A stretch of 64,000 nucleotides of DNA. Source: Escherichia coli (lineage in GTDB: Bacteria > Pseudomonadota > Gammaproteobacteria > Enterobacterales > Enterobacteriaceae). The number at the start of each line of letters is the position of its first letter. Positions within the stretch are counted from its first letter, which is position 1. Below, piece by piece: positions 14,330 through 54,796 of the stretch. Where the stretch lies: the NCBI RefSeq assembly GCF_016903815.1, contig NZ_CP069974.1; one strand, given 5' to 3'. A model generated the notes under the pieces. It was given only the letters and a program-made list of their open reading frames with translations. It made no database searches and was not told where the DNA came from. The translations under genes and the position numbers were made by a program.

Positions 14330-14700
14330 GTATACCTCTTTATTTTCTTATCGCATCAAATTTATTTCACATATAAAAAAAAGACAATTCATCGATGAAT
14401 CGAATCGTGACGCAAGTTACGAAAATTACGATTCATGCAGCAAATCACATCACGAATTGAATCTAGAGTCAATTCGCTTTAACTCGTTGTTTTATTATTA
14501 CTGATTCATCTATGAGTTGTGTTAAATTCATTGGTGAATCATATGCGATTCACCAATGAATCCTTTTTATAATGTAAAATAAATTAAAATACATTATTTA
14601 AAACATAAGTTAATGATTCAAGTAGCAAATCAGCAAAAACTTGTTTTTGCGTAGTGTGTGGTGCTTTTGGTGGTGAGAACCACCAACCTGTTGAGCCTTT
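14330..14700. other. oriT region with predicted nic site near 14660/14661 and TraM-binding inverted repeats
   Basis: GCGTAGTGTGT/GGTGCTTTTGGTGGTGAGAACCACC resembles the F nic region; AT-rich IHF-like tracts; inverted repeats TTCATTGGTGAATC...GATTCACCAATGAATC around 14530-14570. Confidence 0.6.
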
Positions 14701-16784: not shown

Positions 16785-16810
16785 CCTGCTTTCTCCTCTC
16801 TCTGGTTTTC

Positions 16811-17392
16811 AGCCCCCATCATCTGTTGAGTTTCGGGAGCCGCGGTTTTGACGTTTTGCGGGGACCTGCCTTTTGTTCCCTCCGGTATTCACCATCACCT
16901 TTTTGAGAACCTTCGCCGCAAGGGGCATCACTGCCACGGACGGAAACGACTGTCCGGGGGCAGACCGCAAAAGTTTTTGCCTGCTTCTGGGCAAAAAGTT
17001 TTGCGGGATGTGCATTTCACCCCTGGACTGGCGGAGACGGTTGTGGCTGTCTTTGCCCCCGGCGACAGGGGCTTAAACAGGTGAATGGCACCGGACAGAA
17101 CAACGGGCAGGGACCCGCCGCAACGACGTGAAGCGCGGTTTGCGAAACGGCGTTGCCCCTTACATCCCGGCGGTCTTTTGCCGGGATGCCAGGAGCGCAG
17201 GCCACGGCGCGACAGAGGCGGCGCGACCGGAACGGTCGCTGCAAGCCAGGGGTTTTCACGCATCGGACCGTAGCGACAGCCCGAAACCGCGCCAGCGGGT
17301 TCGGCGGAGACTGGCAGGTGCGCCAGCAGCTGCCTGTCGGAGTCGGGCCTGACGACCGGATGCCGCCAGGCAGCCGGGAGCCGAAGGTGCGC
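16811..17392. repeat. GC-rich structured repeat copy 1 (candidate Frpo/ssi-type ssDNA promoter), abutting intron copy 1
   Basis: ~0.57-kb sequence repeated at 28596-29177 (near-identical) and 34285-34848 (diverged in the first ~250 nt); sits ~27 nt upstream of the orf95 start on the minus strand; multiple hairpins, e.g. GCGACCG-GAA-CGGTCGC. Confidence 0.45.
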
Positions 17393-28529: not shown

Positions 28530-28568
28530 TCCTACGAGAATGACCTTGTTAATGCCACGAACTGCCAT
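28530..28568 (-). CDS. ssb: plasmid SSB, exon 1 (codons 1-13, MAVRGINKVILVG)
   Basis: RBS AGGAGG then ATG at 28568; 13 codons matching the SSB N-terminus, followed immediately by intron 5' GTGCG. Confidence 0.8.
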
Positions 28569-28595
28569 GATGTGCCTCCTTCTGTTGATGTTTTC

Positions 28596-29177
28596 AGCCC
28601 CCATCATCTTTTGAGTTTCGGGAGCCGCGGTTTTGACGTTTTGCGGGGACCTGCCTTTTGTTCCCTCCGGTATTCACCATCACCTTTTTGAGAACCTTCG
28701 CCGCATGGGGCATCACTGCCACGGACGGAAACGACTGTCCGGGGGCAGACCGCAAAAGTTTTTGCCTGCTTCTGGGCAAAAAGTTTTGCGGGATGTGCAT
28801 TTCACCCCTGGACTGGCGGAGACGGTTGTGGCTGTCTTTGCCCCCGGCGACAGGGGCTTAAACAGGTGAATGGCACCGGACAGAACAACGGGCAGGGACC
28901 CGCCGCAACGACGTGAAGCGCGGTTTGCGAAACGGCGTTGCCCCTTACATCCCGGCGGTCTTTTGCCGGGATGCCAGGAGCGCAGGCCACGGCGCGACAG
29001 AGGCGGCGCGACCGGAACGGTCGCTGCAAGCCAGGGGTTTTCACGCATCGGACCGTAGCGACAGCCCGAAACCGCGCCAGCGGGTTCGGCGGAGACTGGC
29101 AGGTGCGCCAGCAGCTGCCTGTCGGAGTCGGGCCTGACGACCGGATGCCGCCAGGCAGCCGGGAGCCGAAGGTGCGC
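28596..29177. repeat. GC-rich structured repeat copy 2 (candidate Frpo/ssi-type ssDNA promoter) immediately upstream of ssb
   Basis: Near-identical to 16811-17392; begins ~28 nt upstream of the ssb start codon on the minus strand. Confidence 0.45.
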
Positions 29178-31561
29178 GTGCGACAGGAAGTCGCTTAACG
29201 TATTGTTTTACATTGATAAAACCAGCTATCCCATTAGCTGTAGCCTACCGGGACAGGCGTTGCCGGCAACGGCGGGGTCTGAAGCTCCCGGGACAACGAG
29301 AGCCGGGCGTCAGCCCGGGTAATGCCCCGTGAGGGGCTTTACCTTGCTGCAAGCATCATGCGGCAGGAGAGCAAGGCTGGTCAGAAGGGTTAACACATGT
29401 GAACTGTTGATAAACACCGTTATCGGCAACAGGCCAAAGATGCTGACAGGCCTGAACCAAAAGGTACGGGGTCCGGTTGCTACCTCGCGCACAGGGAGCA
29501 CATGGGCGCAGAGACCCCCGGTGAAGAGACAGAACCCGCCCTGACCCTCTGTATGTTAAGCGGAACCTGGTAAACCCGTATCGCTGCCTCACAGGCAGGT
29601 GAACCGCAAGGAACACTGTTAGCGGTGCGGGCATAGGAGGACGGAAAAAGCGAATGCCCGGCTGTAATAACCGGGATACGGGGCAGGTTCCCCGACGCGA
29701 AAGCGGGCAGACTTCCGTCTGGTCTTTAATTGCATGAAAAGCTGTAAAGCAGTCAAAAGGATATCAGCGAGATGAATACACACATCAGTGTGTCCACGAT
29801 ACCCCACCCGACAGGCTGGCACACCATAAACTGGAAAGCATGCCATGCCCGGGTGCGAAAGCTACAGTTACGGATTGCAAAGGCAACCCGACAGCAACAA
29901 TGGCGGCAGGTCAGAGAACTACAGCGCATCCTCACCCGCTCATTCTCCGGCAAAGCCGTGGCTGTCAGGCGTGTAACTGAAAATACCGGTAAAAGGACAC
30001 CCGGTATTGACGGAAAAATATGGCACACACCGAAGGAGAAATGGGAAGGAATATGCAGCCTGAATCTGTGTGGTTACAGGCCACAGCCACTACGGCGAAT
30101 ACATATCCCAAAATCAAACGGCAAAACGCGACCGCTGGGCATACCCACAATGAGGGACCGGGCCATGCAGGCACTGTGGCTGCTGGCTCTGGAACCCGTA
30201 TCCGAGACCACTGCTGACCATAACAGCTATGGTTTCAGACCAATGCGCAGCACGCATGACGCCATTGAGTCCATTTTTCTGCGGATGAGCCAGAAAGTAT
30301 CGCCCAAATGGATACTGGAGGGCGATATTAAAGGGTGCTTCGATAACATCAGCCATGACTGGCTGCTTTCCCATATTCCGATGGACAGGAGACTGCTTAA
30401 AAAATGGTTGAAAGCAGGTTACATGGAAAGAGGCGTGTTTAACCATACGAACAGCGGGACACCGCAGGGAGGCATCATATCCCCTGTTCTCGCCAACATG
30501 GCTCTGGACGGACTGGAGAAGGAACTGATGCAAACGTTCAGGAAAAGTGGTTATCACAGTGCAAAGCACCAGGTGAATTATGTGAGATATGCTGATGATT
30601 TCATCTGTTCAGGCAGCTCCCGTGAATTGCTGGAAAATGAGGTCAGACCACTGATTGCAGCTTTCATGCGCGAACGAGGGCTGGAACTGTCGGAAGAAAA
30701 AACAGCGATCACACATATAGATAAAGGCTTCGACTTTTTAGGGCAGAACGTCAGGAAGTACAACGGTAAAATGCTGATTAAACCGTCGAAGAAAAACCTG
30801 AAGAACTTCCTCTGTAAAGTCAGAGAAATAATTAAACGCAATCCGACGCTCCCGGCATGGAAACTGATAGGCCAGCTAAACCCGGTGATCCGGGGATGGG
30901 CTACCTATCACCGACACGTCGTGGCGAAAGAAACATTTAATTATGTCGACACCCAAATCTGGCGAGCTATATGGCGATGGTGTGTAAGACGGCATCCCCG
31001 GAAAGGATTGCGGTGGATCGCCGGACGATACTTCTCCTTTGAAGGCAGGCGCTGGATCTTTAAAGCCATAACCCCGGAAGGGAAAATTCTGACACTCTTC
31101 CGGGCAATGGAAACACCGATAAAGCGCCATATAAAAATCAAAGGCGAAGCAACACCATACACCCCCGGAATGGAAATCTACTTTGAACGTCGTCTGGATC
31201 TAATCTGGAAAGGCAAATCAAAGAAGATGAAGACAGTAGTTCAACTCTGGAAGAGGCAGGGGAAACACTGTCCGCAGTGCGGACAACTCATAACCAACCA
31301 GACCGGATGGAATATACATCACCGGATCAGGAAAGTTATGGGCGGCAGTGACGAACTGACCAATCTCGAGTTGTTACATCCGAACTGCCACCGACAGTTA
31401 CACAGCAGGGAAGCCGGTGCTCACCGAAAGCACTTATAAAGGCTTGAGCGGAGTGCGGGGAAACTCGCACGCTCCGTTCTTAGGGGGCGGCGGCGCAGCA
31501 ATGTGCCGCTGCTACCCGACCCGGCAGACAGGACAACACTGCAGTAGTCAGAATCAGAGCA
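29178..31561 (+). mobile_element. group II intron copy 2
   Basis: Identical to copy 1 across the IEP and flanking RNA domains; same junction with the upstream repeat. Confidence 0.75.
29772..31439 (+). CDS. group II intron-encoded RT/maturase/HNH (copy 2)
   Basis: 555-aa protein identical to the copy 1 IEP. Confidence 0.9.
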   Translation: MNTHISVSTIPHPTGWHTINWKACHARVRKLQLRIAKATRQQQWRQVRELQRILTRSFSGKAVAVRRVTENTGKRTPGIDGKIWHTPKEKWEGICSLNLCGYRPQPLRRIHIPKSNGKTRPLGIPTMRDRAMQALWLLALEPVSETTADHNSYGFRPMRSTHDAIESIFLRMSQKVSPKWILEGDIKGCFDNISHDWLLSHIPMDRRLLKKWLKAGYMERGVFNHTNSGTPQGGIISPVLANMALDGLEKELMQTFRKSGYHSAKHQVNYVRYADDFICSGSSRELLENEVRPLIAAFMRERGLELSEEKTAITHIDKGFDFLGQNVRKYNGKMLIKPSKKNLKNFLCKVREIIKRNPTLPAWKLIGQLNPVIRGWATYHRHVVAKETFNYVDTQIWRAIWRWCVRRHPRKGLRWIAGRYFSFEGRRWIFKAITPEGKILTLFRAMETPIKRHIKIKGEATPYTPGMEIYFERRLDLIWKGKSKKMKTVVQLWKRQGKHCPQCGQLITNQTGWNIHHRIRKVMGGSDELTNLELLHPNCHRQLHSREAGAHRKHL

Positions 31562-33815: not shown

Positions 33816-34046
33816 TCAGTTAAAAGCGCGTTTCAGTTCGAGTGTGCGGAGCACCTGCCCGAAGGCCGTGTTTTTCATGGCGGGGATGTGTACACCACGC
33901 CCCCGGTGAAAACTCCGGGCAATGTGTCGCCCGAAGGCTTTCAGCACGGGGTCAATTTCCGGCGCGGGGATGTCTTCGCGTCTGAAACGGGGATGACGGC
34001 GGGGCTTTACAGCCGCTGCGGAAGGTGAAACAATACTTACTGTCAT
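33816..34046 (-). CDS. small hypothetical leading-region protein (76 aa)
   Basis: ORF downstream (minus strand) of repeat copy 3; no motif recognised. Confidence 0.35.
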   Translation of the reverse strand: MTVSIVSPSAAAVKPRRHPRFRREDIPAPEIDPVLKAFGRHIARSFHRGRGVHIPAMKNTAFGQVLRTLELKRAFN

Positions 34047-34284
34047 AATTTAGCCTCTTATGACGTTAATTAATGAAACCGTAAAGACTGTTCGTGCAGT
34101 CTCTGCGGTGTGGATTAAGCAGGTCCCTGACCTGCTTTTTTCATATCTGCGTCTGACGTTCTCCGGTGTTTTCCTCCTTCTGTTCCTGCGTTCTCATTAC
34201 CTGCCAGCCGGATGACTGACAGAACACATAAATGCGTATTGCCGGAGCCTGAAATAAATCCTGATTTTTAAAGAACATCACCCG

Positions 34285-34848
34285 TTGAGTTTCGGGAGCC
34301 GCGGTTTTGACGTTTCGCGGGAACCTGCTGCTGTATACCCTGTGGTATGAACTTCACCCGTTTGAGAACCTTCGCCGCAAGGGGCATCACTGCCACGGCC
34401 TGACGCACCTGTCCTGGGCAGAACGCAAAATTTTTTACCGGGTTTTGGGTAAAAAATTTTGTGGGCTGTTCATTTACCCTGGACAGTCAGTGCGGCAGGT
34501 TGTGGCTGTATCAGCCCCAGGCGACAGGGACTCATACGGGTGTGTGGCACCGGCAGGCAATGAGCAGGGACCCGCCGCAACGACGGAGAGCGCGTGCGCG
34601 AAACGGCGTTGCCCCTTACATCCCGGCGGCCTTTTGCCGGGATGCCGGGAGCGCAGGCCACGGCGCGACAAGGGTGGCGCGACCGGAACGGTCGCTGCAA
34701 GCCCGGGGTTTTCACGCATCGGACCGTAGCGACAGCCCGAAACCGCGCCAGCGGGTTCGGCGGAGACTGGCGGGTGCGCCAGCAGCTGCCTGTCGGAGTC
34801 GGGCCTGACGACCGGATGCCGCCAGGCAGCCGGGAGCCGAAGGTGCGC
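34285..34848. repeat. GC-rich structured repeat copy 3 (diverged 5' part)
   Basis: Homologous to 16825-17392; first ~250 nt heavily substituted, remainder near-identical; abuts intron copy 3. Confidence 0.45.
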
Positions 34849-37233
34849 GTGCGACAGGAAGTCGCTTAACGTATTGTTTTACATTGATAAAACCAGCTAT
34901 CCCATTAGCTGTAGCCTACCGGGACAGGCGTTGCCGGCAACGGCGGGGTCTGAAGCTCCCGGGACAACGAGAGCCGGGCGTCAGCCCGGGTAATGCCCCG
35001 TGAGGGGCTTTACCTTGCTGCAAGCATCATGCGGCAGGAGAGCAAGGCTGGTCAGAAGGGTTAACACATGTGAACTGTTGATAAACACCGTTATCGGCAA
35101 CAGGCCAAAGATGCTGACAGGCCTGAACCAAAAGGTACGGGGTCCGGTTGCTACCTCGCGCACAGGGAGCACATGGGCGCAGAGACCCCCGGTGAAGAGA
35201 CAGAACCCGCCCTGACCCTCTGTATGTTAAGCGGAACCTGGTAAACCCGTATCGCTGCCTCACAGGCAGGTGAACCGCAAGGAACACTGTTAGCGGTGCG
35301 GGCATAGGAGGACGGAAAAAGCGAATGCCCGGCTGTAATAACCGGGATACGGGGCAGGTTCCCCGACGCGAAAGCGGGCAGACTTCCGTCTGGTCTTTAA
35401 TTGCATGAAAAGCTGTAAAGCAGTCAAAAGGATATCAGCGAGATGAATACACACATCAGTGTGTCCACGATACCCCACCCGACAGGCTGGCACACCATAA
35501 ACTGGAAAGCATGCCATGCCCGGGTGCGAAAGCTACAGTTACGGATTGCAAAGGCAACCCGACAGCAACAATGGCGGCAGGTCAGAGAACTACAGCGCAT
35601 CCTCACCCGCTCATTCTCCGGCAAAGCCGTGGCTGTCAGGCGTGTAACTGAAAATACCGGTAAAAGGACACCCGGTATTGACGGAAAAATATGGCACACA
35701 CCGAAGGAGAAATGGGAAGGAATATGCAGCCTGAATCTGTGTGGTTACAGGCCACAGCCACTACGGCGAATACATATCCCAAAATCAAACGGCAAAACGC
35801 GACCGCTGGGCATACCCACAATGAGGGACCGGGCCATGCAGGCACTGTGGCTGCTGGCTCTGGAACCCGTATCCGAGACCACTGCTGACCATAACAGCTA
35901 TGGTTTCAGACCAATGCGCAGCACGCATGACGCCATTGAGTCCATTTTTCTGCGGATGAGCCAGAAAGTATCGCCCAAATGGATACTGGAGGGCGATATT
36001 AAAGGGTGCTTCGATAACATCAGCCATGACTGGCTGCTTTCCCATATTCCGATGGACAGGAGACTGCTTAAAAAATGGTTGAAAGCAGGTTACATGGAAA
36101 GAGGCGTGTTTAACCATACGAACAGCGGGACACCGCAGGAAGGCATCATATCCCCTGTTCTCGCCAACATGGCTCTGGACGGACTGGAGAAGGAACTGAT
36201 GCAAACGTTCAGGAAAAGTGGTTATCACAGTGCAAAGCACCAGGTGAATTATGTGAGATATGCTGATGATTTCATCTGTTCAGGCAGCTCCCGTGAATTG
36301 CTGGAAAATGAGGTCAGACCACTGATTGCAGCTTTCATGCGCGAACGAGGGCTGGAACTGTCGGAAGAAAAAACAGCGATCACACATATAGATAAAGGCT
36401 TCGACTTTTTAGGGCAGAACGTCAGGAAGTACAACGGTAAAATGCTGATTAAACCGTCGAAGAAAAACCTGAAGAACTTCCTCTGTAAAGTCAGAGAAAT
36501 AATTAAACGCAATCCGACGCTCCCGGCATGGAAACTGATAGGCCAGCTAAACCCGGTGATCCGGGGATGGGCTACCTATCACCGACACGTCGTGGCGAAA
36601 GAAACATTTAATTATGTCGACACCCAAATCTGGCGAGCTATATGGCGATGGTGTGTAAGACGGCATCCCCGGAAAGGATTGCGGTGGATCGCCGGACGAT
36701 ACTTCTCCTTTGAAGGCAGGCGCTGGATCTTTAAAGCCATAACCCCGGAAGGGAAAATTCTGACACTCTTCCGGGCAATGGAAACACCGATAAAGCGCCA
36801 TATAAAAATCAAAGGCGAAGCAACACCATACACCCCCGGAATGGAAATCTACTTTGAACGTCGTCTGGATCTAATCTGGAAAGGCAAATCAAAGAAGATG
36901 AAGACAGTAGTTCAACTCTGGAAGAGGCAGGGGAAACACTGTCCGCAGTGCGGACAACTCATAACCAACCAGACCGGATGGAATATACATCACCGGATCA
37001 GGAAAGTTATGGGCGGCAGTGACGAACTGACCAATCTCGAGTTGTTACATCCGAACTGCCACCGACAGTTACACAGCAGGGAAGCCGGTGCTCACCGAAA
37101 GCACTTATAAAGGCTTGAGCGGAGTGCGGGGAAACTCGCACGCTCCGTTCTTAGGGGGCGGCGGCGCAGCAATGTGCCGCTGCTACCCGACCCGGCAGAC
37201 AGAACAACACTGCAGTAGTCAGAATCAGAGCAG
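34849..37233 (+). mobile_element. group II intron copy 3
   Basis: Identical to copies 1 and 2 except a single substitution in the IEP. Confidence 0.75.
35443..37110 (+). CDS. group II intron-encoded RT/maturase/HNH (copy 3, Gly to Glu substitution in RT motif)
   Basis: GTPQEGIISP instead of GTPQGGIISP (gga to gaa); otherwise identical to copies 1 and 2. Confidence 0.9.
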   Translation: MNTHISVSTIPHPTGWHTINWKACHARVRKLQLRIAKATRQQQWRQVRELQRILTRSFSGKAVAVRRVTENTGKRTPGIDGKIWHTPKEKWEGICSLNLCGYRPQPLRRIHIPKSNGKTRPLGIPTMRDRAMQALWLLALEPVSETTADHNSYGFRPMRSTHDAIESIFLRMSQKVSPKWILEGDIKGCFDNISHDWLLSHIPMDRRLLKKWLKAGYMERGVFNHTNSGTPQEGIISPVLANMALDGLEKELMQTFRKSGYHSAKHQVNYVRYADDFICSGSSRELLENEVRPLIAAFMRERGLELSEEKTAITHIDKGFDFLGQNVRKYNGKMLIKPSKKNLKNFLCKVREIIKRNPTLPAWKLIGQLNPVIRGWATYHRHVVAKETFNYVDTQIWRAIWRWCVRRHPRKGLRWIAGRYFSFEGRRWIFKAITPEGKILTLFRAMETPIKRHIKIKGEATPYTPGMEIYFERRLDLIWKGKSKKMKTVVQLWKRQGKHCPQCGQLITNQTGWNIHHRIRKVMGGSDELTNLELLHPNCHRQLHSREAGAHRKHL

Positions 37234-37423
37234 CAGATAAAGGAACAACAACATCAGGAACAGTTCCATAACATAAGAAAGAAACACTCCTGAGTCAGAC
37301 ACATCACAGACGGGAAGGGTAACGGGCGACGCGCCAGCGTGGCCCGCTTCCCTTCCGGCAGGCGTCAGCCTGCCAGGGGTTTTCGCGCGGACTGACAGGC
37401 GGCCTCCACCGCCTGCCCCTGTA

Positions 37424-37615
37424 TCACCTGTTTCTGCTACCCTGTAAGATGTAGTGACCGCCCAGGAAAACCGCCTGCTGATTCGCCACAAAATCGCAGA
37501 TTTCATCAACAATCTGCGCGGTGGTGAGCGGTTTCTGCCCCATTTCACGACGCCGCGCATTAATCACGGCCCTGTAATTACGCAGAATTTCGCGGGTTTC
37601 TGTGCTGATATTCAT
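37424..37615 (-). CDS. small hypothetical protein (63 aa)
   Basis: ORF with stop/start overlap to the upstream 140-aa gene. Confidence 0.35.
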   Translation of the reverse strand: MNISTETREILRNYRAVINARRREMGQKPLTTAQIVDEICDFVANQQAVFLGGHYILQGSRNR

Positions 37616-38034
37616 GACATCGTCTCCCCGTCCAGCGCCTGTAACACAACGTCCATTGCTTCGCGTTCCTCCCTGACGAATGCGTCACCGTCGCCCCCGT
37701 TCTCACTCCCGACGGCATACAGGCGCTTCATTTCACTGCCTGCCAGCGCCATCACTTTTTCCAGCATCACCGCCGGGACTGTCACCTGACGGCTGGCGCG
37801 CTTTTCTTCCATCAGTTCACGAACAACGCCGTGAACAACGCTGACATCCGCACCATATTCAAAGGCATCGTCCAGCCGCTGCATGACGGTTTCCAGCTCA
37901 TCGTCTGTCAGACTCCAGTCCTGGGCTATGTGACGCACATCCCCACGGGTCAGCACTACGGCAAAAACGCATTCACTGTCCGGCACGTCTGTATCCAGCA
38001 CTTCGCGGATAATTTCTTTAACAGTACAGTACAT
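37612..38034 (-). CDS. hypothetical acidic leading-region protein, paralog of 39750-40184
   Basis: 140 aa; shares an RQVTVPA..L motif and overall architecture with the 144-aa ORF at 39750-40184. Confidence 0.5.
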   Translation of the reverse strand: MYCTVKEIIREVLDTDVPDSECVFAVVLTRGDVRHIAQDWSLTDDELETVMQRLDDAFEYGADVSVVHGVVRELMEEKRASRQVTVPAVMLEKVMALAGSEMKRLYAVGSENGGDGDAFVREEREAMDVVLQALDGETMS

Positions 38035-38080
38035 GTTCTCGTCTCCTTTACAGGGGCGGCATTGCCGCCCCGTCCGTTAA

Positions 38081-38506
38081 TCAGTCCAGAGCCGCGTAAA
38101 TCGCGTTGCATTCGGGGTGAAATTCGATGTGACGCCACAACTGCGCATCGCGCATCCGGTAAAGCTGGGTCAGTCCTGCATCCCCGCTGTCGTGGTACAG
38201 CCACAACTGGCGGTTAATCACAAGGGAGGTCAGGATGATGCCTGCGGCATCAGCACTCACGGTACGGTCAAACCAGTTTGCACCGTTCACCATGTGGAAA
38301 CGGTCGCCATCCGGCATCATGTAACCGCCACCGTCCGGCAGGCGGATGAAGTGCCAGAAGCCTCCCTGATATTCCGGCATCATTTTTTGCGCCAGCGCGT
38401 ACACATACGCCTCGGCATACAGAAAATCGTTGCCAAACAGATACGGCAGAAAGGAGAGACGGTCGCACTCTTCAACATTCAGAGTGACAGGTTTCGCATA
38501 TTGCAT
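38081..38506 (-). CDS. putative antirestriction protein (ArdB/KlcA-like)
   Basis: 141 aa, size and leading-region position typical of KlcA/ArdB; family assignment by recall only. Confidence 0.4.
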
Positions 38507-38922
38507 GATGTTTTCCTCCGTTGTTCACATATTCCGCGACACCGGGCGGTGCCGTGCCTCCATAAAAGCCGGGCGAACAGGCGGGGATGCAGGGGCGCAA
38601 GGGAAGCCGCAGCCTGACGCACACGGCTGACGGGAGTTGCAGGGTGAGACCGCGAAATCTGAGCGGGTGAACGACCGGAAAATCACGGCAGACGGGAAGG
38701 AGGGACCGGGTGACCGCAGCGGCGAAGCGTACCCTTGCATCAACGCCAGCCCGGCTAAGATGGAGGCACGGCACAGCCCGCACACGACGCTGAGGCCACA
38801 TAACTGAAAAACCACAAGGCCATGCCCTGCATGGCCGGGTAAAGCGGAGCCGGCGGCGACTTCCTTTGTGCTCTGTCCGGGGACCGGCAGGAAAAAGGCG
38901 GGGATTTACCCCGCCAGTGTCA
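38507..38922. promoter_or_regulatory. GC-rich region with long imperfect inverted repeat (candidate ssDNA promoter-type hairpin) upstream of the ArdB-like gene
   Basis: Arms CCGGGCGGTGCCGTGCCTCCATAAAAGCCGGGCG (about 38540-38575) and GCCCGGCTAAGATGGAGGCACGGCACAGCCCG (about 38748-38785) are reverse-complementary. Confidence 0.35.
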
Positions 38923-39699
38923 TCATTTCCGGATTTTTGCCAGGGCATCCGCCATGCTGCGGATTTCGGTCCGGGCTTCCCGGACCACCTCCCGCAGAAC
39001 ACCACGGTCAAACCAGCGGCGGGGCGGTTCATCCGGTATACGCAGCACATCGCAGGCCAGCCCACTGGACAGGATATGCTCAATACACTCACTGACCAGA
39101 TACATTTCCACCGACGAAAAACGTGCTCCCCGGTTCACGATGGCATCGAGCACCACGGGCAGGTTTTCGTCATCTTCATCGAGCCAGCAGGGGTGATCGC
39201 TTTCCTTCACGACCAGGCGAAAGCGGCGCGTCTGGCGGGTCAGCAACGTCTGACCGGTGGTGGTCAGCGCCGCACGGATACGCCGCGCATCTTCTGCCAC
39301 CTGGTAACAGATGCTTCGTACCGCATCGTGCACCGCATCAAGAACAGCCCTGATTTCGTCTTCGGTCAGCCATTCTCCGGCATACGGGAAAGACACCTGC
39401 GTTCCGTCTGCCGGAAGTACCGGCAGCGACTGCCACTGACTGCCGGACAGTACCAGTTCCGCCCCGGTTCCGGTCAGTCTCTGAATGGCGGAGGCCAGGA
39501 GCGGCGGCAGTACGCCGCCGTGACGGTTGATAAGTAACGTCGCCAGCCGGGGCGCATCCAGCCGCACGTAAATGCTGATCCAGCCCGGATAGTTCGGATT
39601 TCGCTGGTCAACATCCGTCTCTTCCGGCCAGCCCTGCGCCAGCAGCAGGTTACGGGCGTGACGACAAATCAGTGCGTTCAGCGTGCTGTTTTCGTTCAT
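38923..39699 (-). CDS. hypothetical leading-region protein
   Basis: ORF from [14 protein letters not shown]...; no recognised motif. Confidence 0.45.
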
Positions 39700-39749
39700 G
39701 ATTAAGCGTTCTCCCTGTATCGCCGCCCGCAGGGCAGGCGGCGATAACA

Positions 39750-40184
39750 TCAGTTGTTTTCGTGTGTGTTGTTTTTCAGCAGGGTGCGGGCCTGATTAAC
39801 CACCGCCTGACGGCGGGTAACGCATTCCGGGACGGCGAGGCCGTTATCACGGGCGGCCCACTCACGTTTCCACAGTGCCTGTTCAGCGGTCTGAATCAGG
39901 GACGCCAGCAGTTCAGCAGGGACGGTCACCTGGCGGTTTTCGCTCACGTTGCTGATAATCTCCATCACCGCGGCGGAAGAAATACCGGATTCAGTCCGCT
40001 GGTCTTCCGGGATGTCCTCCATGCGCGCCAGGACGGTCCTGATTTCATGATCGGTCAGAGAAATTTCCATACCGTCAGCCAGTGCCTGAATCTCTTCCGG
40101 GGACCAGATAACCAGCATCAGCGGCGCGTCTCCCGGATACTTTGCTGCCAGCTCCCGGCATAGCGTTTCGCATGTTCCGTACAT
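39750..40184 (-). CDS. hypothetical acidic leading-region protein, paralog of 37612-38034
   Basis: 144 aa, shares the [10 protein letters not shown] motif with the 140-aa ORF. Confidence 0.5.
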
Positions 40185-40197
40185 TCTCGTCTCCTTC

Positions 40198-40419
40198 TCA
40201 ATCTTTGAAGCAGGAATCCAGTTCCAGAATTTCGGTATACGCCTCCATAAACAGGCGATTGGCGCGATACAGCGTCTGGCGTGTCAGGCGTTCAACAAGC
40301 ACATCGGAATCAAAGCGACAGCGATGCTCCATATCGTTCAGCCTGGCCCGAAGGTCACACATGGTGTTGGCCACCTCCGCCACGTCGGCGCGAAGTTTTT
40401 CGTGTCCGGCATAGTTCAT
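40198..40419 (-). CDS. small hypothetical protein (73 aa)
   Basis: ORF immediately downstream (minus strand) of the orphan methyltransferase. Confidence 0.4.
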   Translation of the reverse strand: MNYAGHEKLRADVAEVANTMCDLRARLNDMEHRCRFDSDVLVERLTRQTLYRANRLFMEAYTEILELDSCFKD

Positions 40420-41103
40420 TTACGCAGCCTCCGGCATAAACCAGTCATCATTCGCGGCCCCCTGCTGCATGGCCCGTTGCACGGCGGCAAGGCGTTGCTG
40501 CCCGGCACGGTGATACTGCTCAAGCAGCTCGATACCGATATACCGGCGTCCGGACTGGAGGGCGGCGACGCAGGTTGAGCCGCTGCCTGCAAACGGGTCC
40601 AGCACAATTGCGTTCGGGTGTGTGAAGCTCTCAATCAGCGGTTGCAGGCTGGTAACGGGCTTTTCCGTCGGGTGATGACGATTGCCAGAATATTTCCAGC
40701 CCAGCACGTCCGGCAGCGGGTTTTGTGGCAGACGTGGACGGCCTTTTGCCAGGATGTAGGCGCATTCGTGGCGATAGCCCACATATGCGGCCTTCGATGT
40801 GTAGTTTTTGGTGAAGACCAGGTGACCAACAACGCTGAATCCCGCATTTTTCCAGGCGGCCATAAAGCGATCGACGCGGTTCCAGCCGTAGAAGCTCACC
40901 ATCAGCGCGTCTTTTTTGAGTACGCGGTACATTTCATTACAGGCCGGTTGCAGCCATTCATCGGTTTTATCGCCGGCGATGGTGCGCCCGGAACGGTCAC
41001 GAAAACCGACGAGATATGGCGGGTCAGTTAATATGAAATCAATGGCGTTATCAGGGATACGCGTCATAACATCGATGCAGTTACCAAGGACAAAACGGGA
41101 CAT
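40420..41103 (-). CDS. orphan DNA methyltransferase (DPPY motif, N6A/N4C type)
   Basis: 227 aa with DPPY catalytic motif near the N-terminus and FAGSGST AdoMet-binding motif later; no cognate restriction gene. Confidence 0.75.
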   Translation of the reverse strand: MSRFVLGNCIDVMTRIPDNAIDFILTDPPYLVGFRDRSGRTIAGDKTDEWLQPACNEMYRVLKKDALMVSFYGWNRVDRFMAAWKNAGFSVVGHLVFTKNYTSKAAYVGYRHECAYILAKGRPRLPQNPLPDVLGWKYSGNRHHPTEKPVTSLQPLIESFTHPNAIVLDPFAGSGSTCVAALQSGRRYIGIELLEQYHRAGQQRLAAVQRAMQQGAANDDWFMPEAA

Positions 41104-41487
41104 AACAACGCTCCTTCTCTTACAGAGGGCACCGGGAGGGCCCCCCTGTGGTGCCCGTTCCCCGCTGCCTGTGGGCTGTTCACCGCGTCCGGTAACGGGT
41201 CAGGCCGACCGTGGAATATCGCAGCCGTCGTCTTTTTGACGGCGAGAATATGCCGCGAAAGCGGCTTGAAGGGCGTTCATCAGAAAAGGGCGACAGGCTG
41301 GCGTACACTGTCACCGGTGCCAGCCGGGAGCAGTAAAAGCGCCCGTCCCGTGCCCGCCGGACGCGGGACACTGACCACAGGCAGCGTTCCTGCCGCGCCG
41401 CGTCAGCCGGCGCAGTAAAAAGAGGAGCACGGCGACATCCTTTGTCGGAAAAGAAACGGGCGGTTGCCCGCCCGTCTCCGTCATACT

Positions 41488-42414
41488 TCATCCCCCGTAA
41501 TGCGCCACCTTGTCGACTATCCACTCCGGCGCGGTGACTTCCGGCAGCTCATCATCATCTGTCGGGGAAGACCATTCCAGTTCCCCCCACAGCACATCAA
41601 CAAGCTCTCCACGCTCATATCGCTGCCAGCCACAGAAATTGCAGCCCTGTTCGGCGTACCAGTGCTCCAGCGTGCAGCCGAAACGGCGGCTTAATTCTGC
41701 AACAACGTTGCTTTCCGGCTGACACCACGGCGTGTCGAAATCCACTTGAATGAAGTTTTCTCCCTGACGGCTGATATTCACCTCATACCCCACAGGCCAC
41801 TTCACGCCATACTGTTCCGTATACCAGTGATACGCAGAAGGAACACCGTTCAGAACACCACCGTTAAAGCCATTCACTTCAACATCCAGGCGGGTGGGCA
41901 GAACCGTCAGCAGGTCAAACGGCATGGTTTTTTCCGGCAGTACATTGTCACACAGACGGTTCCACCACACCGATACATCCTCGTTACTCCAGAAGCCACA
42001 CCAGTCACCTCTTTTTGCGGTGAAATGCACGGTGATGGTTTCCCTGACCTCATCCGGTAATCCTTCCCAGCGACGCTGGCCAGTACCACTCTGCAGCCAG
42101 AGTTCATGCAGCATCAGGCAGTTTTGCTCATCCAGCAGTACACCGTTCTGCAGGTGTGTCAGCCAGCGGGTGAACGCGATATTCTCCGGCGATACAACAC
42201 CACGTCCGGCATCCGTCAGTCCGGGGCACGGTTCAAACTGCACATCTTCAGTGGTCTGCAGAAGTCCGGCACTTCCGGCCAGAAACAGCTGAATACCTTC
42301 ATTTGTGGCGCGGCGATAAAGCGGTGTGACGGCACCGCTGGCCAGTCGTTTAATCTCAGCAATCTGTGCCGGTTCACCAGAAAAATGCATACGATTCGAG
42401 CACCAGTTTGGCAT
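41488..42414 (-). CDS. hypothetical leading-region protein (from MPNWCSNRMHF...)
   Basis: ORF with Trp/Cys-rich sequence; no motif recognised. Confidence 0.45.
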   Translation of the reverse strand: MPNWCSNRMHFSGEPAQIAEIKRLASGAVTPLYRRATNEGIQLFLAGSAGLLQTTEDVQFEPCPGLTDAGRGVVSPENIAFTRWLTHLQNGVLLDEQNCLMLHELWLQSGTGQRRWEGLPDEVRETITVHFTAKRGDWCGFWSNEDVSVWWNRLCDNVLPEKTMPFDLLTVLPTRLDVEVNGFNGGVLNGVPSAYHWYTEQYGVKWPVGYEVNISRQGENFIQVDFDTPWCQPESNVVAELSRRFGCTLEHWYAEQGCNFCGWQRYERGELVDVLWGELEWSSPTDDDELPEVTAPEWIVDKVAHYGG

Positions 42415-42785
42415 GGGAATTCTCCTCTCACATGCGGCCTCCATCAGGCCGTGCCGCACCTGTAACCGGGCGACCGCATACGAATGCAGGTGCGGCCCCG
42501 AAGCCGCAGCGCGTGGAGGAGGAACGACGAAACGTGACCGGGTGAGGAGGCCGGCGACAGCGACACACTTGCATCGGATGCAGCCCGGTTAACGTGCCGG
42601 CACGGCCTGGGTAACCAGGTATTTTGTCCACATAACCGTGCGCAAAATGTTGTGGATAAGCAGGACACAGCAGCAATCCACAGCAGGCATACAACCGCAC
42701 ACCGAGGTTACTCCGTTCTACAGGTTACGACGACATGTCAATACTTGCCCTTGACAGGCATTGATGGAATCGTAGTCTCACGCTG

Positions 42786-43180
42786 ATAGTCTGATCGACA
42801 ATACAAGTGGGACCGTGGTCCCAGACCGATAATCAGACCGACAACACGAGTGGGATCGTGGTCCCAGACTAATAATCAGACCGACGATACGAGTGGGACC
42901 GTGGTCCCAGACTAATAATCAGACCGACGATACGAGTGGGACCGTGGTCCCAGACTAATAATCAGACCGACGATACGAGTGGGACCATGGTCCCAGACTA
43001 ATAATCAGACCGACGATACGAGTGGGACCATGGTCCCAGACTAATAATCAGACCGACGATACGAGTGGGACCGTGGTCCCAGACTAATAATCAGACCGAC
43101 GATACGAGTGGGACCGTGGTCCCAGTCTGATTATCAGACCGACGATACAAGTGGAACAGTGGGCCCAGAGAGAATATTCA
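42786..43180. repeat. sopC: sopC partition centromere (tandem 43-bp repeats with internal GGGACCGTGGTCCC palindrome)
   Basis: About 8-9 tandem 43-bp units directly downstream of sopB. Confidence 0.9.
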
Positions 43181-43256
43181 GGCCAGTTATGCTTTCTGGC
43201 CTGTAACAAAGGACATTAAGTAAAGACAGATAAACGTAGACTAAAACGTGGTCGCA

Positions 43257-44228
43257 TCAGGGTGCTGGCTTTTCAAGTTCCTTAAGAATGGCCTCAATTT
43301 TCTCTATACACTCAGTTGGAACACGAGACCTGTCCAGGTTAAGCACCATTTTATCGCCCTTATACAATACTGTCGCTCCAGGAGCAAACTGATGTCGTGA
43401 GCTTAAACTAGTTCTTGATGCAGATGACGTTTTAAGCACAGAAGTTAAAAGAGTGATAACTTCTTCAGCTTCAAATATCACCCCAGCTTTTTTCTGCTCA
43501 TGAAGGTTAGATGCCTGCTGCTTAAGTAATTCCTCTTTATCTGTAAAGGCTTTTTGAAGTGCATCACCTGACCGGGCAGATAGTTCACCGGGGTGAGAAA
43601 AAAGAGCAACAACTGATTTAGGCAATTTGGCTGTGTTGATACAGCGGGTAATAATCTTACGTGAAATATTTTCCGCATCAGCCAGCGCAGAAATATTTCC
43701 AGCAAATTCATTCTGCAATCGGCTTGCATAACGCTGACCACGTTCATAAGCACTTGTTGGGCGATAATCGTTACCCAATCTGGATAATGCAGCCATCTGC
43801 TCATCATCCAGCTCGCCAACCAGAACACGATAATCACTTTCGGTAAGTGCAGCAGCTTTACGACGGCGACTCCCATCGGCAATTTCTATGACACCAGATA
43901 CTCTTCGACCGAACGCCGGTGTCTGTTGACCAGTCAGTAGAAAAGAAGGGATGAGATCATCCAGTGAGTCCTCAGTAAGCAGCTCCTGGTCACGTTCATT
44001 ACCTGACCATACCCGAGAGGTCTTCTCAACACTATCACCCCGGAGCACTTCAAGAGTAAACTTCACATCCCGACCACATACAGGCAAAGTAATGGCATTA
44101 CCGCGAGCCATTACTCCTACGCGCGCAATTAACGAATCCACCATCGGGGCAGCTGGTGTCGATAACGAAGTATCTCCAACCGGTTGAGTATTGAGCGTAT
44201 GTTTTGGAATAACAGGCGCACGCTTCAT
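43257..44228 (-). CDS. sopB: SopB (ParB-type partition protein)
   Basis: 323 aa matching F SopB by recall; adjacent to sopA and sopC. Confidence 0.9.
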
Positions 44229-45403
44229 TATCTAATCTCCCAGCGTGGTTTAATCAGACGATCGAAAATTTCATTGCAGACAGGTTCCCAAATAGAAAGA
44301 GCATTTCTCCAGGCACCAGTTGAAGAGCGTTGATCAATGGCCTGTTCAAAAACAGTTCTCATCCGGATCTGACCTTTACCAACTTCATCCGTTTCACGTA
44401 CAACATTTTTTAGAACCATGCTTCCCCAGGCATCCCGAATTTGCTCCTCCATCCACGGGGACTGAGAGCCATTACTATTGCTGTATTTGGTAAGCAAAAT
44501 ACGTACATCAGGCTCGAACCCTTTAAGATCAACGTTCTTGAGCAGATCACGAAGCATATCGAAAAACTGCAGTGCGGAGGTGTAGTCAAACAACTCAGCA
44601 GGCGTGGGAACAATCAGCACATCAGCAGCACATACGACATTAATCGTGCCGATACCCAGGTTAGGCGCGCTGTCAATAACTATGACATCATAGTCATGAG
44701 CAACAGTTTCAATGGCCAGTCGGAGCATCAGGTGTGGATCGGTGGGCAGTTTACCTTCATCAAATTTGCCCATTAACTCAGTTTCAATACGGTGCAGAGC
44801 CAGACAGGAAGGAATAATGTCAAGCCCAGGCCAGCAAGTGGGCTTTATTGCATAAGTGACATCGTCCTTTTCCCCAAGATAGAAAGGCAGGAGAGTGTCT
44901 TCTGCATGAATATGAAGATCTGGTACCCATCCGTGATACATTGAGGCTGTTCCCTGGGGGTCGTTACCTTCCACGAGCAAAACACGTAGCCCCTTCAGAG
45001 CCAGATCCTGAGCAAGATGAACAGAAACTGAGGTTTTGTAAACGCCACCTTTATGGGCAGCAACCCCGATCACCGGTGGAAATACGTCTTCAGCACGTCG
45101 CAATCGCGTACCAAACACATCACGCATATGATTAATTTGTTCAATTGTATAACCAACACGTTGCTCAACCCGTCCTCGAATTTCCATATCCGGGTGCGGT
45201 AGTCGCCCTGCTTTCTCGGCATCTCTGATAGCCTGAGAAGAAACCCCAACTAAATCCGCTGCTTCACCTATTCTCCAGCGCCGGGTTATTTTCCTCGCTT
45301 CCGGGCTGTCATCATTAAACTGTGCAATGGCGATAGCCTTCGTCATTTCATGACCAGCGTTTATGCACTGGTTAAGTGTTTCCATGAGTTTCATTCTGAA
45401 CAT
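44228..45403 (-). CDS. sopA: SopA (ParA-type partition ATPase); likely start at MKLMETL (45394)
   Basis: Walker [17 protein letters not shown]; matches F SopA. Confidence 0.9.
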
Positions 45404-45724
45404 CCTTTAATCATTGCTTTGCGTTTTTTTATTAAATCTTGCAATTTACTGCAAAGCAACAACAAAATCGCAAAGTCATCAAAAAACCGCAAAGTTGTTT
45501 AAAATAAGAGCAACACTACAAAAGGAGATAAGAAGAGCACATACCTCAGTCACTTATTATCACTAGCGCTCGCCGCAGCCGTGTAACCGAGCATAGCGAG
45601 CGAACTGGCGAGGAAGCAAAGAAGAACTGTTCTGTCAGATAGCTCTTACGCTCAGCGCAAGAAGAAATATCCACCGTGGGAAAAACTCCAGGTAGAGGTA
45701 CACACGCGGATAGCCAATTCAGAG

Positions 45725-46779
<1,055 letters not shown>

Positions 46780-46839
46780 CTAAATAAAAAAGAGTCAATA
46801 AGCAGGGATAACTTTGTGAAAAAACAGCTTCTTCTGAGG

Positions 46840-47045
46840 GCAATCTGTCACAGGGTTAAGGGCAATTTGTCACAGACAGGACTGTCATTTGAGGGTAATT
46901 TGTCACACTGAAAGGGCAATTTGTCACAACACCTTCTCTAGAACCAGCATGGATAAAGGCCTACAAGGCGCTCTAAAAAAGAAGATCTAAAAACTATAAA
47001 AAAAATAATTATAAAAATATCCCCGTGGATAAGTGGATAACCCCA
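46840..47045. other. ori2 (oriS) of RepFIA: four iterons, AT-rich stretch and two DnaA boxes
   Basis: Four direct repeats (GAGGGCAATCTGTCACAGG etc.) at 46840-46930, AT-rich region, GTGGATAAGTGGATAAC DnaA-box pair near 47023-47040. Confidence 0.8.
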
Positions 47046-47510
47046 AGGGAAGTTTTTTCAGGCATCGTGTGTAAGCAGAATATATAAGTGCTGTTCCCTG
47101 GTGCTTCCTCGCTCACTCGAGGGCTTCGCCCTGTCGCTCGACTGCGGCGAGCACTACTGGCTGTAAAAGGACAGACCACATCATGGTGCTGTGTTCATTA
47201 GGTTGTTCTGTCCATTGCTGACATAATCCGCTCCACTTCAACGTAACACCGCACGAAGATTTCTATTGTTCCTGAAGGCATATTCAAATCGTTTTCGTTA
47301 CCGCTTGCAGGCATCATGACAGAACACTACTTCCTATAAACGCTACACAGGCTCCTGAGATTAATAATGCGGATCTCTACGATAATGGGAGATTTTCCCG
47401 ACTGTTTCGTTCGCTTCTCAGTGGATAACAGCCAGCTTCTCTGTTTAACAGACAAAAACAGCATATCCACTCAGTTCCACATTTCCATATAAAGGCCAAG
47501 GCATTTATTC

Positions 47511-48317
47511 TCAGGATAATTGTTTCAGCATCGCAACCGCATCAGACTCCGGCATCGCAAACTGCACCCGGTGCCGGGCAGCCACATCCAGCGCAAAAAC
47601 CTTCGTGTAGACTTCCGTTGAACTGATGGACTTATGTCCCATCAGGCTTTGCAGAACTTTCAGCGGTATACCGGCATACAGCATGTGCATCGCATAGGAA
47701 TGGCGGAACGTATGTGGTGTGACCGGAACAGAGAACGTCACACCGTCAGCAGCAGCGGCGGCAACCGCCTCCCCAATCCAGGTCCTGACCGTTCTGTCCG
47801 TCACTTCCCAGATCCGCGCTTTCTCTGTCCTTCCTGTGCGACGGTTACGCCGCTCCATGGGTATTTTCAGTGTTGCCACCATCGTCTGCAGCTGGCTGAC
47901 GTACCAGGAGTCAGAGAGCGGAACCAGCCGGTGAGTCTGCTGACCGGCGGGCATTCTCCCCGCCGTCCTGGCAGCTTTTTCGGTCCGTTGTTTCAGGGTC
48001 GCAAGCTGCACAAACGGATACGGAGGCGCAAGCGAAAAATCCCCCCGCGTCAGCGCCAGTGCTTCATTAATGCGTGCTCCGGTGTTCCACAGTGTGGCCA
48101 GCAGCATCTTGCGGTGCAGATCCGGGACGTAATGGAGCAGGGCACTCACTTCCGGAGCCAGCAGATATTTTGGCAGTTCATCATGGACCATCGACATCTG
48201 GCGAAGTGCCAGAGCTGCCGGATAATCAATGGCAACAGGCAGCGATGCAGGCTGCCCGGCAGAATACACTGCCGGTACCATGACTGCAGACTGGCTGTGT
48301 ATAACGGAGCCTGACAT
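47511..48317 (-). CDS. resD: ResD (D protein) tyrosine site-specific recombinase/resolvase
   Basis: 268 aa with conserved R...HxxR...Y integrase motifs (HTFRHSYAMHM, Y near C-terminus); adjacent to ccdB. Confidence 0.85.
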   Translation of the reverse strand: MSGSVIHSQSAVMVPAVYSAGQPASLPVAIDYPAALALRQMSMVHDELPKYLLAPEVSALLHYVPDLHRKMLLATLWNTGARINEALALTRGDFSLAPPYPFVQLATLKQRTEKAARTAGRMPAGQQTHRLVPLSDSWYVSQLQTMVATLKIPMERRNRRTGRTEKARIWEVTDRTVRTWIGEAVAAAAADGVTFSVPVTPHTFRHSYAMHMLYAGIPLKVLQSLMGHKSISSTEVYTKVFALDVAARHRVQFAMPESDAVAMLKQLS

Positions 48318-48843
<526 letters not shown>

Positions 48844-49234
48844 AGCACACCTCTTTTTGACATACTTCGGGTATACATATCAGTATATATTCTTATGCCG
48901 CAAAAATCAGCGCGCAAATACGCATACTGCTATCTGGCTTTTAGTAAGCCTTATGTATTTTACCTTTCGTTATGTTAACCAATAAAAATTAAAATCTGAC
49001 TTATAAAAACAAAGCGTAATTACCGCATTCCCGTTTCGTATGGATCCGACTTTATTTGAATAAACGACTTTCCGGAAGTGTACAACGCTGAGAAAATCAT
49101 CATATCGCTGTTTTCCGCCCCTGCACGGCGCATCACAGGTCAGGGAAATAACACAACATATAGTGTCATCAGCAGCTGAATCCGGCACCACATGTTGTGC
49201 TTACAGGAAGTGGCGTTGTGTGGGGGGGAGAGGA

Positions 49235-54300: not shown

Positions 54301-54490
54301 CCACGCCAACAGCCCCGAAGGCTGCGGACCATAGAACCAGCATAGCCCGGACGTAATGGGTGGAGCAGGAAACAAGTATTCTCTCCACCGGGTTCCAGCG
54401 AAGTTTTTTGTAATCCCGGTTCGACTTCAGGCTCCGTCGGAGTTCAGCTCTCACCTGCCATGAGACACTTTTCAGAAGTTTTCCAAACAT
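51371..54490 (-). CDS. large membrane-anchored protein of unknown function (1039 aa, four N-terminal TM segments)
   Basis: Uninterrupted 3.1-kb ORF in an AT-rich island; four hydrophobic segments within the first ~200 aa, ~840-aa soluble C-terminal region with no recognisable catalytic motif. Confidence 0.7.
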   Translation of the reverse strand: MFGKLLKSVSWQVRAELRRSLKSNRDYKKLRWNPVERILVSCSTHYVRAMLVLWSAAFGAVGVVEYFRPVLLPFAVQHFKGITKLSDWMSNLLGSQLTIIGIVFPLVVGLISVLFQKKSARIHIQSAYQLHSGYMFAGLSGLSLAAFVVLGGMTLSIGDGYLNTSFAVTAFVWMLFNIILSIWFFVSSLNVLDESKRDRLMNKFFLSQIVDDYIQKAYIQAWLRYPGGHVGQNYLGNIKILPYSISEKDDMLHVKSNISKGDVVTDIYIRPFLFLLRRLEAVDGQDAEIIILPSFGVRSGELTLLSSRNVKPVSGLWRWLLRRCIVTGRPENKRDLDDITFDFFGEAYDALNDKNISVFRTGIERLTDTYTSIKRSYNYEVDKNYLDEVKESGFSHTFSDSFHYELRKFFRESVKSTEYSGEYFRESMLIPLRVYRKTQSTCFTDFRQFLLSLFRVWHVLNEWKAGLGGPLSASQELTHQALIRGYIGLWEGWSMTTITGKPGSEDSTGRLMYHLHNTARLLIPSVVADNASSVRYAHDVLCLWFNQSRFTRYWEEEYRWHSFFLTPDYLSLKETEPQWNMLLRGSKYKKDAALSIMFANALSDLRLLMAGYLIAHFESQKNIDLADLVNHLIMSELYEDRDTHDTLTPAFRRSVDIIDMILRIEHCNLHTNTSWYSGLSETIEVMNSYNERPYIPGRMYTGEYEDLGSLYGAFALLAIKLARPAEQVTQRVNEALAGGVFSYSSKDRIISILKRLKRDPSVPYEGYIISEADYATNVVFFNDVLDKYIDVFSRSKTADIVAAEVDQARLRNTDARLTNELPGALSEDVLLKYFTFTQNSECDRNWLAIYIPVGVSKEYVARELNQTDYGDFPSVSEVNRNILRRLHYVLWQSQAKLTIEVNNLETLLMEVAQRSADQNNYILVIYGSRFSEELRELVYQPERHDAFSIHVDVSARGSRSLPFRINNCLIYLVLNSEQEFSLMVSAESFGELRLFRYPDGTLFNTFYRSSDDPLEGVMKTLWEIEMEITDTPVARFEHR

Positions 54491-54796
54491 AGATATCCTG
54501 CGTATTACATAAGAAATTTTATGAATAATAAGCGGTAGGAACCTTTTTTTCTCTGGAAAATGTCACCCGATACCCTTCATACAGGCTTTGTCATCCTAAA
54601 ATCCGGTTTAACCTTTTTTCGGATCTCCGATAAAAAAGAAAGAAATAGAGATATGCATAAACATATGCCTGGCATCTACATATGCTACCGCTATACATAT
54701 GCCACACATCTGCCTATACTAAACATATGCACACACCCGGTGCTTTGAATATTCCGGATATGTTTCACATATCCATATGCTCGGGAGAGAAAGAAC

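Follow-up and report, generated by a model that had tools for sequence, protein, structure and literature searches.

Frpo/ssiD of the F plasmid and ssi1-3 of ColIb-P9 are reportedly class 1 promoters, active on single-stranded DNA (ssDNA) (Masai & Arai 1997; Bates et al. 1999; Couturier et al. 2023). On the IncI1 plasmid pESBL, six operons show strong induction in the first 15 min of conjugation (Wen et al., NAR 2025, PMC12672017). Each of these operons is predicted to be preceded by a large hairpin in which -35 and -10 elements are rebuilt, and the transcription starts, mapped by 5' RACE in transconjugants, sit inside the hairpins in agreement with the in silico predictions (PMC12672017). The hairpins of this group include: (i) class 1, represented by ssi1-3 and Frpo, which were first found as priming signals and give the highest transcription, (ii) class 2, represented by the klcA and ardA hairpins, which are without homology to class 1 and are ranked as a separate class, and (iii) class 3, represented by the M.EcoGIX hairpin (PMC12672017). 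Both class 2 and class 3 have conserved counterparts in F, where induction is noted by RNA-seq (PMC12672017).

The class 2 copy of F is named ssp2 and controls yfgB, which encodes an ArdB homolog (Fraikin et al., bioRxiv 2026, 10.64898/2026.01.09.698686). The ssp2 stem stalls complementary-strand synthesis, with the stalled 3' end mapping to the base of the stem, and the stall is resolved by UvrD; deletion of ssp2 speeds conversion and lowers transfer into restriction-proficient strains (10.64898/2026.01.09.698686). When ssp3 is put in place of ssp2, the promoter is active and there is no roadblock activity, while transfer recovers fully in the face of EcoGIII, a type II system, and in part for the strains IAI1 and ED1a (10.64898/2026.01.09.698686). 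The published model of the F leading region comprises four operons and four ssDNA promoters (10.64898/2026.01.09.698686). Further elements are listed by Samuel et al. (Nature 2024, Supplementary file 4) from a conjugative element of an insect-gut metagenome; these are bioinformatic candidates only and are grouped with Frpo, with no separate class.

Setting of the klcA spacer

The stretch of DNA analyzed here (the window, 64 kb) is the oriT-proximal part of an IncF plasmid, and the element of interest sits in its leading region. The 601 nt around this element have 100% identical copies in many IncF plasmids of E. coli, Klebsiella and Salmonella; the klcA product of these identical regions is WP_001198928.1, and the same accession is found in pESBL. 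The F plasmid (NC_002483, the F reference used) aligns to window positions 37268-49181 over 12 kb, in reverse orientation and with 96.6% identity. Plasmid-database matches comprise at least 5000 near-identical records, and the diverged homologs discussed below are drawn from an E. coli collection and the published supplement.

In F transfer, the nicked strand enters the recipient 5' end first with the leading region ahead. The F-type nic sequence is on the + strand; thus, by the polarity of F transfer, the + strand is the transferred strand (T-strand). The leading genes are all encoded on the minus strand, with the + strand as their template (Table 1). The AT-rich segment 14301-14700, which coincides with oriT and the nic site, folds more strongly than any other part of the window once GC content is corrected for (z about -5.4).

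Table 1. Features of the leading region, in window coordinates.
Feature	Position	Strand	Basis or remark
F-type nic-site sequence GCGTAGTGTGTGGTGCTTTT in oriT	14649-14668	+	sequence match, F synteny
Frpo copies (three)	16805-17254, 28530-29040, 34276-34711		89-97% identical to F Frpo1/Frpo2
Identical group II introns (three)	17256-19739, 29041-31524, 34712-37195	+	
Fourth group II intron, upstream of ssb	about 25869-28100	minus	
Second DUF1380 gene	37612-38034	minus	
klcA/ardB-type anti-restriction gene	38081-38506	minus	Pfam Antirestrict PF03230, E 1.5e-26
Predicted klcA 5' UTR, 49 nt	38507-38555	minus	inference from pair map and sequence
Probable class 2 (ssp2-type) ssDNA promoter hairpin, ~240 nt, imperfect	38543-38780	+	fold, covariation, identity
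GAACA 5-nt bulge, template arm	38575-38579	+	fold, pair map
-35-like hexamer TTGCAT, 3' (non-template) arm	38735-38740	+	fully paired with 38587-38592
-10-like hexamer TAAGAT, 3' arm	38756-38761	+	15 nt after TTGCAT
Second terminator-like hairpin, GGCCATGCAGGGCATGGCC then TTGTGGTTTT	38818-38836	minus	
Intrinsic terminator of the methylase-to-275-aa-ORF operon, GGCGGGGTAAATCCCCGCC then TTTTT	38897-38915	minus	8 nt past the 275-aa ORF stop
275-aa ORF	38923-39750	minus	
DUF1380 gene	39750-40184	minus	
73-aa ORF	40198-40419	minus	
N6/N4 DNA methylase gene, M.EcoGIX type	40420-41103	minus	Pfam N6_N4_Mtase
Long hairpin immediately 5' of the M.EcoGIX-type methylase gene	41163-41386 (main stem)	+	fold
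Terminator-like hairpin past the DUF1281 gene, GGGCGG GCAA CCGCCC then TTTCTTTT	41456-41475	minus	sequence, fold
DUF1281 gene	41488-42390/42459	minus	
Shorter class-2-like hairpin upstream of the DUF1281 gene	42445-42609	+	fold, hexamers

The 416-nt spacer that separates the 275-aa ORF from klcA (38507-38922) has a GC content of 0.61-0.66 and is composite, presenting in the direction of klcA a set of terminators, a promoter hairpin and a leader. An earlier reading of the sequence alone (the sequence-only reading) had described a long imperfect inverted repeat in this interval; the hairpin is real, but the interval also holds terminators of the upstream operon. Two sites within 38813-38915 have the GC-rich stem-loop, the T run and the location after a stop codon that define intrinsic terminators. 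As these terminators lie upstream of the hairpin, klcA is a separate transcription unit, and it is the predicted first gene under control of the hairpin promoter. The leading region as a whole can be read as a series of units, each made up of a terminator, a hairpin promoter and an operon, which is of value for its annotation. The genes preceded by hairpins do include, as had been proposed, an anti-restriction gene (klcA) and a DNA methyltransferase gene (40420-41103), both with Pfam matches.

The hairpin upstream of klcA

A repeat search of the spacer finds inverted arms of 32 nt that are 88% complementary (38543-38574 and 38749-38780) and continue as 38580-38595 and 38732-38747. The arms are 136-174 nt apart, close to the distance of about 200 nt first proposed. 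In the resulting hairpin, the 5' arm (38543-38595) is the template and the 3' arm (38732-38780) the non-template strand of a basal stem that spans ~50 bp in the pair map and is followed by a long, imperfect distal part. As ssDNA, the whole spacer folds on the + strand to -103.1 kcal/mol (z -4.4, with 0 of 100 dinucleotide shuffles as good) and its core, 38530-38795, to -71.6 kcal/mol (z -5.8, 0 of 200 shuffles). When the + strand is folded in sliding windows of 300 nt, the three Frpo copies come top, followed by 41101-41450 (the best window outside Frpo, -81.7 kcal/mol) and then by the region of the klcA spacer. After GC correction, the spacer ranks about 60 among 1275 windows and is, thus, only moderately extreme, which makes covariation a stronger argument than folding energy; the proof of the hairpin is taken from shuffles and covariation, not from the energy by itself.

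The alignment used for covariation has ten homologs: the window, F, the klcA and ardA copies of pESBL, the klcA and ardA copies of pO26-Vir, two copies of an allele of 88-89% identity, an ardA copy from ETEC and a Klebsiella-type copy of 68.6% identity. In the consensus hairpin, 97.1% of cells are paired, and 19 of the 76 pairs have compensatory changes on both sides; shuffling gives 3.7 +/- 1.4 (none of 500 reaches 19), and sliding the partners gives 1-4. The GC-rich, long and imperfect inverted repeat noted by the sequence-only reading is, in these values, confirmed. The T-strand folds better than its complement in all ten homologs, by 3.4-10.3 kcal/mol, although counts of strand asymmetry and wobble pairs are biased toward the strand on which the structure was predicted. 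A count of G.T versus A.C cells (29 to 3) was rejected as strand evidence, as it is circular when the structure is predicted on the same strand, and the free energies of both strands were compared instead. The element is found in 3689 of 5426 complete E. coli genomes (68%), most often as two copies and in every case 5' of klcA or ardA; the present window has one copy only, with no ardA-linked paralog within it.

The basal stem carries a -35-like and a -10-like hexamer on its 3' arm (Table 1). The -35-like hexamer is kept among homologs as TTGCAT or TTGCAA, the latter with a compensating A-to-T change on the opposite arm. In the -10-like hexamer, positions 1, 5 and 6 are paired, while AAG (38757-38759) lies unpaired against AAA (38564-38566) in a pre-opened bubble. 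All homologs retain A at position 2 and T at position 6 (the variants being TAAGAT, TACGAT, TAAAGT, TAAGGT, TACAGT and TAACGT), while the opposite arm varies from AAAA to CTTT. In the non-template strand, A-11 and T-7 are flipped out and recognized by sigma-70; if the 3' arm is what sigma-70 reads, conservation of this A and T opposite a varying arm is the expected pattern. The GAACA bulge of the template arm causes the spacer between the two hexamers to be 19 nt on the 5' arm compared to 15 nt on the 3' arm. The module TTGNNN, 15 nt, TANNNT, with positions 2-4 of the -10 unpaired, is shared by six independent relatives, recurring in F, pESBL, p1446, a metagenomic homolog and two shorter relatives.

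The hexamers are weak by consensus, with three of six matches at -35, four of six at -10 and 15 nt between them on the non-template arm. Read as a duplex, the coding strand offers only CTGCAT, 19 nt and TTTTAT, with no A at -11, and a strict scan of 38000-43300 for consensus duplex sigma-70 promoters returns 0 compared to 2.3 expected. The sequence-only reading had anticipated a stable T-strand hairpin with -35/-10-like elements, and this is what folding of the T-strand as ssDNA gives (TTGCAT, 15 nt, TAAGAT). Transcription is predicted to start at A38768, opposite the template T38555 and 7 nt after the -10. A Shine-Dalgarno sequence, GGAGGA, is located just upstream of the klcA ATG at 38506.

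Natural class 2 alleles of ~88-89% identity are observed in more than 1300 E. coli records (e.g., L004 20015-20295 and 13065-13345, L007 2496-2771 and L008 2496-2771). In these alleles, the bulge is shifted from the template to the non-template arm, such that the 3'-arm spacer is 20 nt rather than 15 nt, CTTT replaces AAAA opposite the -10 and leaves little of the bubble open, and the change of TTGCAT to TTGCAA is compensated by an A-to-T change on the other arm. The arm swap of the bulge and the closed -10 bubble may tune promoter and roadblock strength, and this allelic variation is possibly new.

In its sequence, the klcA spacer is 95.6% identical to the yffB-yfgB spacer of F that contains ssp2 (NC_002483, 56342-56754) and 96.4% and 95.2% identical to the regions upstream of klcA and ardA in pESBL, respectively. 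A clear homolog of the hairpin is also listed by Samuel et al. as candidate Frpo' 4. Homology, location 5' of klcA with the T-strand as template, and a stem-loop that rebuilds the -35 and -10 are the marks of class 2, and all three are found here. The hairpin at 38543-38780 is, with a probability of about 0.9, a class 2 (ssp2-type) ssDNA promoter of the IncF leading region that is active while the DNA is single-stranded. As such, the main finding is a correct rediscovery of an element published in 2025-2026 and already known; it confirms published biology without extending it, with the short hairpin upstream of the DUF1281 gene as a possible exception.

The likeness to class 2 of pESBL and to ssp2 of F extends to whole-spacer identity (95-96%), strand and hairpin; moreover, the KlcA protein is identical to that of pESBL, and the spacer likewise lies between the methylase operon and the klcA operon. 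The differences are a sequence divergence of ~4-5% and the single copy in the window. Compared to ssp2 of F, mismatches at 38742-38743, beside the -35, make the stem of the window ~10 kcal/mol weaker, and the strength of the roadblock could differ accordingly from that of F.

In the mechanism proposed for this element, the + strand would enter the recipient 5' end first from the nick at ~14.66 kb, as judged from the orientation of the sequence, and the spacer, while still single-stranded, would fold into the ~240-nt hairpin predicted by in silico folding and covariation. The basal stem would recreate a duplex sigma-70 promoter in which TTGCAT and TAAGAT are non-template and the central bases of the -10 are unpaired. 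Host RNA polymerase would then start near template T38555 and read out of the stem into klcA and the genes downstream, such that anti-restriction protein would be made before the complementary strand exists, in keeping with the early induction published for pESBL and F. Once the complement is synthesized, the hairpin would be lost, leaving the weak boxes of the linear duplex, and the promoter would turn off. In F, the same stem is published to stall synthesis of the complement until it is opened by UvrD, which prolongs the ssDNA phase of the downstream promoters. With hairpins of this type, a plasmid can express anti-restriction and other establishment genes during its first minutes in the recipient, while it is not yet double-stranded, and they thereby help resistance plasmids to cross barriers between strains.

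Four other explanations of the hairpin can be weighed against a class 2 ssDNA promoter. That it is mainly an element of DNA replication, a barrier or priming signal with klcA expressed from elsewhere, draws on the F data, in which the stall maps to the base of the ssp2 stem, deletion speeds conversion and UvrD is needed (10.64898/2026.01.09.698686), and on the discovery of class 1 elements as priming signals (PMC12672017). The two roles are not exclusive, however, and several observations make a mainly replicative function quite improbable. The ssp2 element is reported to control yfgB, and transfer is restored by ssp3, which lacks the roadblock, fully against EcoGIII and partly for IAI1 and ED1a (10.64898/2026.01.09.698686); starts determined by 5' RACE map to the class 2 hairpins of pESBL (PMC12672017). 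In addition, the hexamers of the 3' arm are kept while the opposite arm varies, which points to contact by a sequence-specific protein and not just to stem stability, and the scan of 38000-43300 offers no alternative promoter. An action of the pairing in RNA, as a structured leader, attenuator or processing site of a longer klcA mRNA, or as the terminator of the upstream operon, is very improbable. Compensatory changes do not distinguish pairing in DNA from pairing in RNA, and genuine terminators are present in the same spacer, but these terminators precede the hairpin, so that read-through RNA should be scarce. The mRNA-sense strand, moreover, folds worse than the T-strand in 10 of 10 homologs, an Rfam search of the klcA spacer returns no family match, and the published starts lie within the hairpins, as predicted in silico (PMC12672017).

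The sequence-only reading had proposed an Frpo/ssi-type ssDNA promoter, and its kind is upheld by the 95-96% identity to tested class 2 elements, while the family is not. A diverged copy of Frpo/ssiD (class 1) at 38543-38780, akin to the triplicated repeat of the window, might be suspected from a long imperfect T-strand hairpin upstream of leading genes in the same genomic neighborhood. Against this origin, which is highly improbable, BLAST yields no alignment with the three Frpo copies better than E 0.13 over 17 nt and a further search is also negative, published work finds no homology and assigns a separate class (PMC12672017), the hairpin is ~240 nt compared to ~330 nt, and the set of downstream genes differs. 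The comparison with Frpo that the sequence-only reading proposed, thus, came out negative at the level of sequence. Frpo/ssi elements are alike in outline, with a T-strand hairpin that rebuilds the -35 and -10, a location upstream of early leading genes and, as predicted for the klcA hairpin, activity on ssDNA only; by contrast, the class 2 hairpin is shorter and serves other genes (klcA, not ssb, psiB or ygeA), and class 1 primes DNA synthesis whereas ssp2 blocks it (PMC12672017; 10.64898/2026.01.09.698686). The T-strand promoter hairpin common to Frpo and class 2 reflects likeness of action and not common descent. That the hairpin is an accidental palindrome of GC-rich, non-coding DNA, or belongs to an unannotated protein-coding ORF, has a probability close to nil: mechanical ORFs do span the spacer (96 and 206 aa, minus strand), a few records annotate a hypothetical protein and the GC-corrected folding rank is modest, but the observed energy is never reached by dinucleotide shuffles, the 19 pairs with compensatory changes already refute this origin, and the element recurs upstream of klcA or ardA throughout the genomes counted above.

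Hairpins upstream of the methylase and DUF1281 genes

The region 41104-41487, which the sequence-only reading had named as a similar candidate, folds to -106.5 kcal/mol (z -6.0) and holds up as such. It is 96.1% identical to pESBL 54398-54781, located 5' of M.EcoGIX, and 96.6% identical to F. This region is probably the published class 3 (ssp3) ssDNA promoter, an assignment that rests on its location 5' of M.EcoGIX and on the published criterion of -75 kcal/mol (PMC12672017). A relaxed scan of the class 3 hairpin for hexamers gives only weak matches and no convincing -35/-10. The terminator-like hairpin at 41456-41475, which is absent from the scan output that gave the two terminators of the klcA spacer, provides the DUF1281 gene with a terminator-like end of its own and separates it from the methylase operon. 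RefSeq places a 103-aa hypothetical protein (WP_011254640.1 and relatives) on the minus strand at 41180-41491, overlapping both the class 3 hairpin and this terminator. A Pfam search of the 103-aa protein returns no match, and the ORF is probably an artifact of the GC-rich hairpin rather than a gene, better explained as class 3 hairpin plus terminator.

A further candidate had been proposed at 42460-42700. The hairpin exists but the coordinates were wrong: 42460-42700 is not significant (z -1.5) because it clips the 5' arm, which starts at 42445, whereas 42445-42609 has a z of -3.5 with 0 of 200 shuffles as good. This shorter hairpin carries TTGCAT (42569-42574), 15 nt and TAACGT (42590-42595), the central bases of which are unpaired, and its 3' arm is 74% identical to that of class 2 over 73 nt. 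BLAST comparisons among class 2, class 3 and the Frpo copies reveal no relationship except this one, between class 2 and the third hairpin. Among the candidates of Samuel et al., the promoter module and the GTGCCGTG / CACGGCAC basal stem of the klcA hairpin recur in Frpo* 1 and Frpo* 3, which are shorter, like 42445-42609; when the latter is aligned with them, 18 of 56 pairs are compensatory.

The four ssDNA promoters of the published F model do not include the hairpin at 42445-42609. This hairpin is tentatively viewed as a fifth, undescribed ssDNA promoter in the leading regions of F-like and IncI plasmids, related to class 2 but short, that would drive the DUF1281 gene at the far end of this region, though this remains the less likely outcome, and the hairpin may instead be a relic. 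Both the present plasmid (window 41488-42459) and pESBL have an intact DUF1281 gene, while in F (L002 6811-7781) it is frameshifted and split into two ORFs, which could explain why a promoter at this site was overlooked. It is also possible that the published "M.EcoGIX promoter" corresponds to 42445-42609 rather than to 41163-41386, a reading opposed by the criterion of -75 kcal/mol (PMC12672017) and by the intervening terminator. Besides the allelic variation of class 2, this short hairpin is possibly the only new element of the region. Directly upstream of it, tandem repeats at 42765-43184 match the sopC centromere of F; thus, the leading region abuts the sopABC partition locus here.

Frpo copies and group II introns

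The three Frpo copies of the window are true Frpo elements (Table 1), and the leading region also contains four group II introns, detected by Rfam (RF02012 and RF00029) and by their ltrA genes. Each intron of the + strand lies just 3', on the T-strand, of one Frpo copy, with identical flanks, and the intron start, GTGCGAC, is located ~140 nt past the end of the Frpo homology. It seems that the intron, or a unit of Frpo plus intron, has spread to every Frpo copy. This layout of introns and Frpo is found in only 19 plasmid records. An antisense RNA of plasmid pHK01, AS-pc01 (Rfam RF02875), is matched on the + strand at 34041-34140 with 98.9 bits; the match faces the 5' end of the gene that comes first after Frpo copy C.
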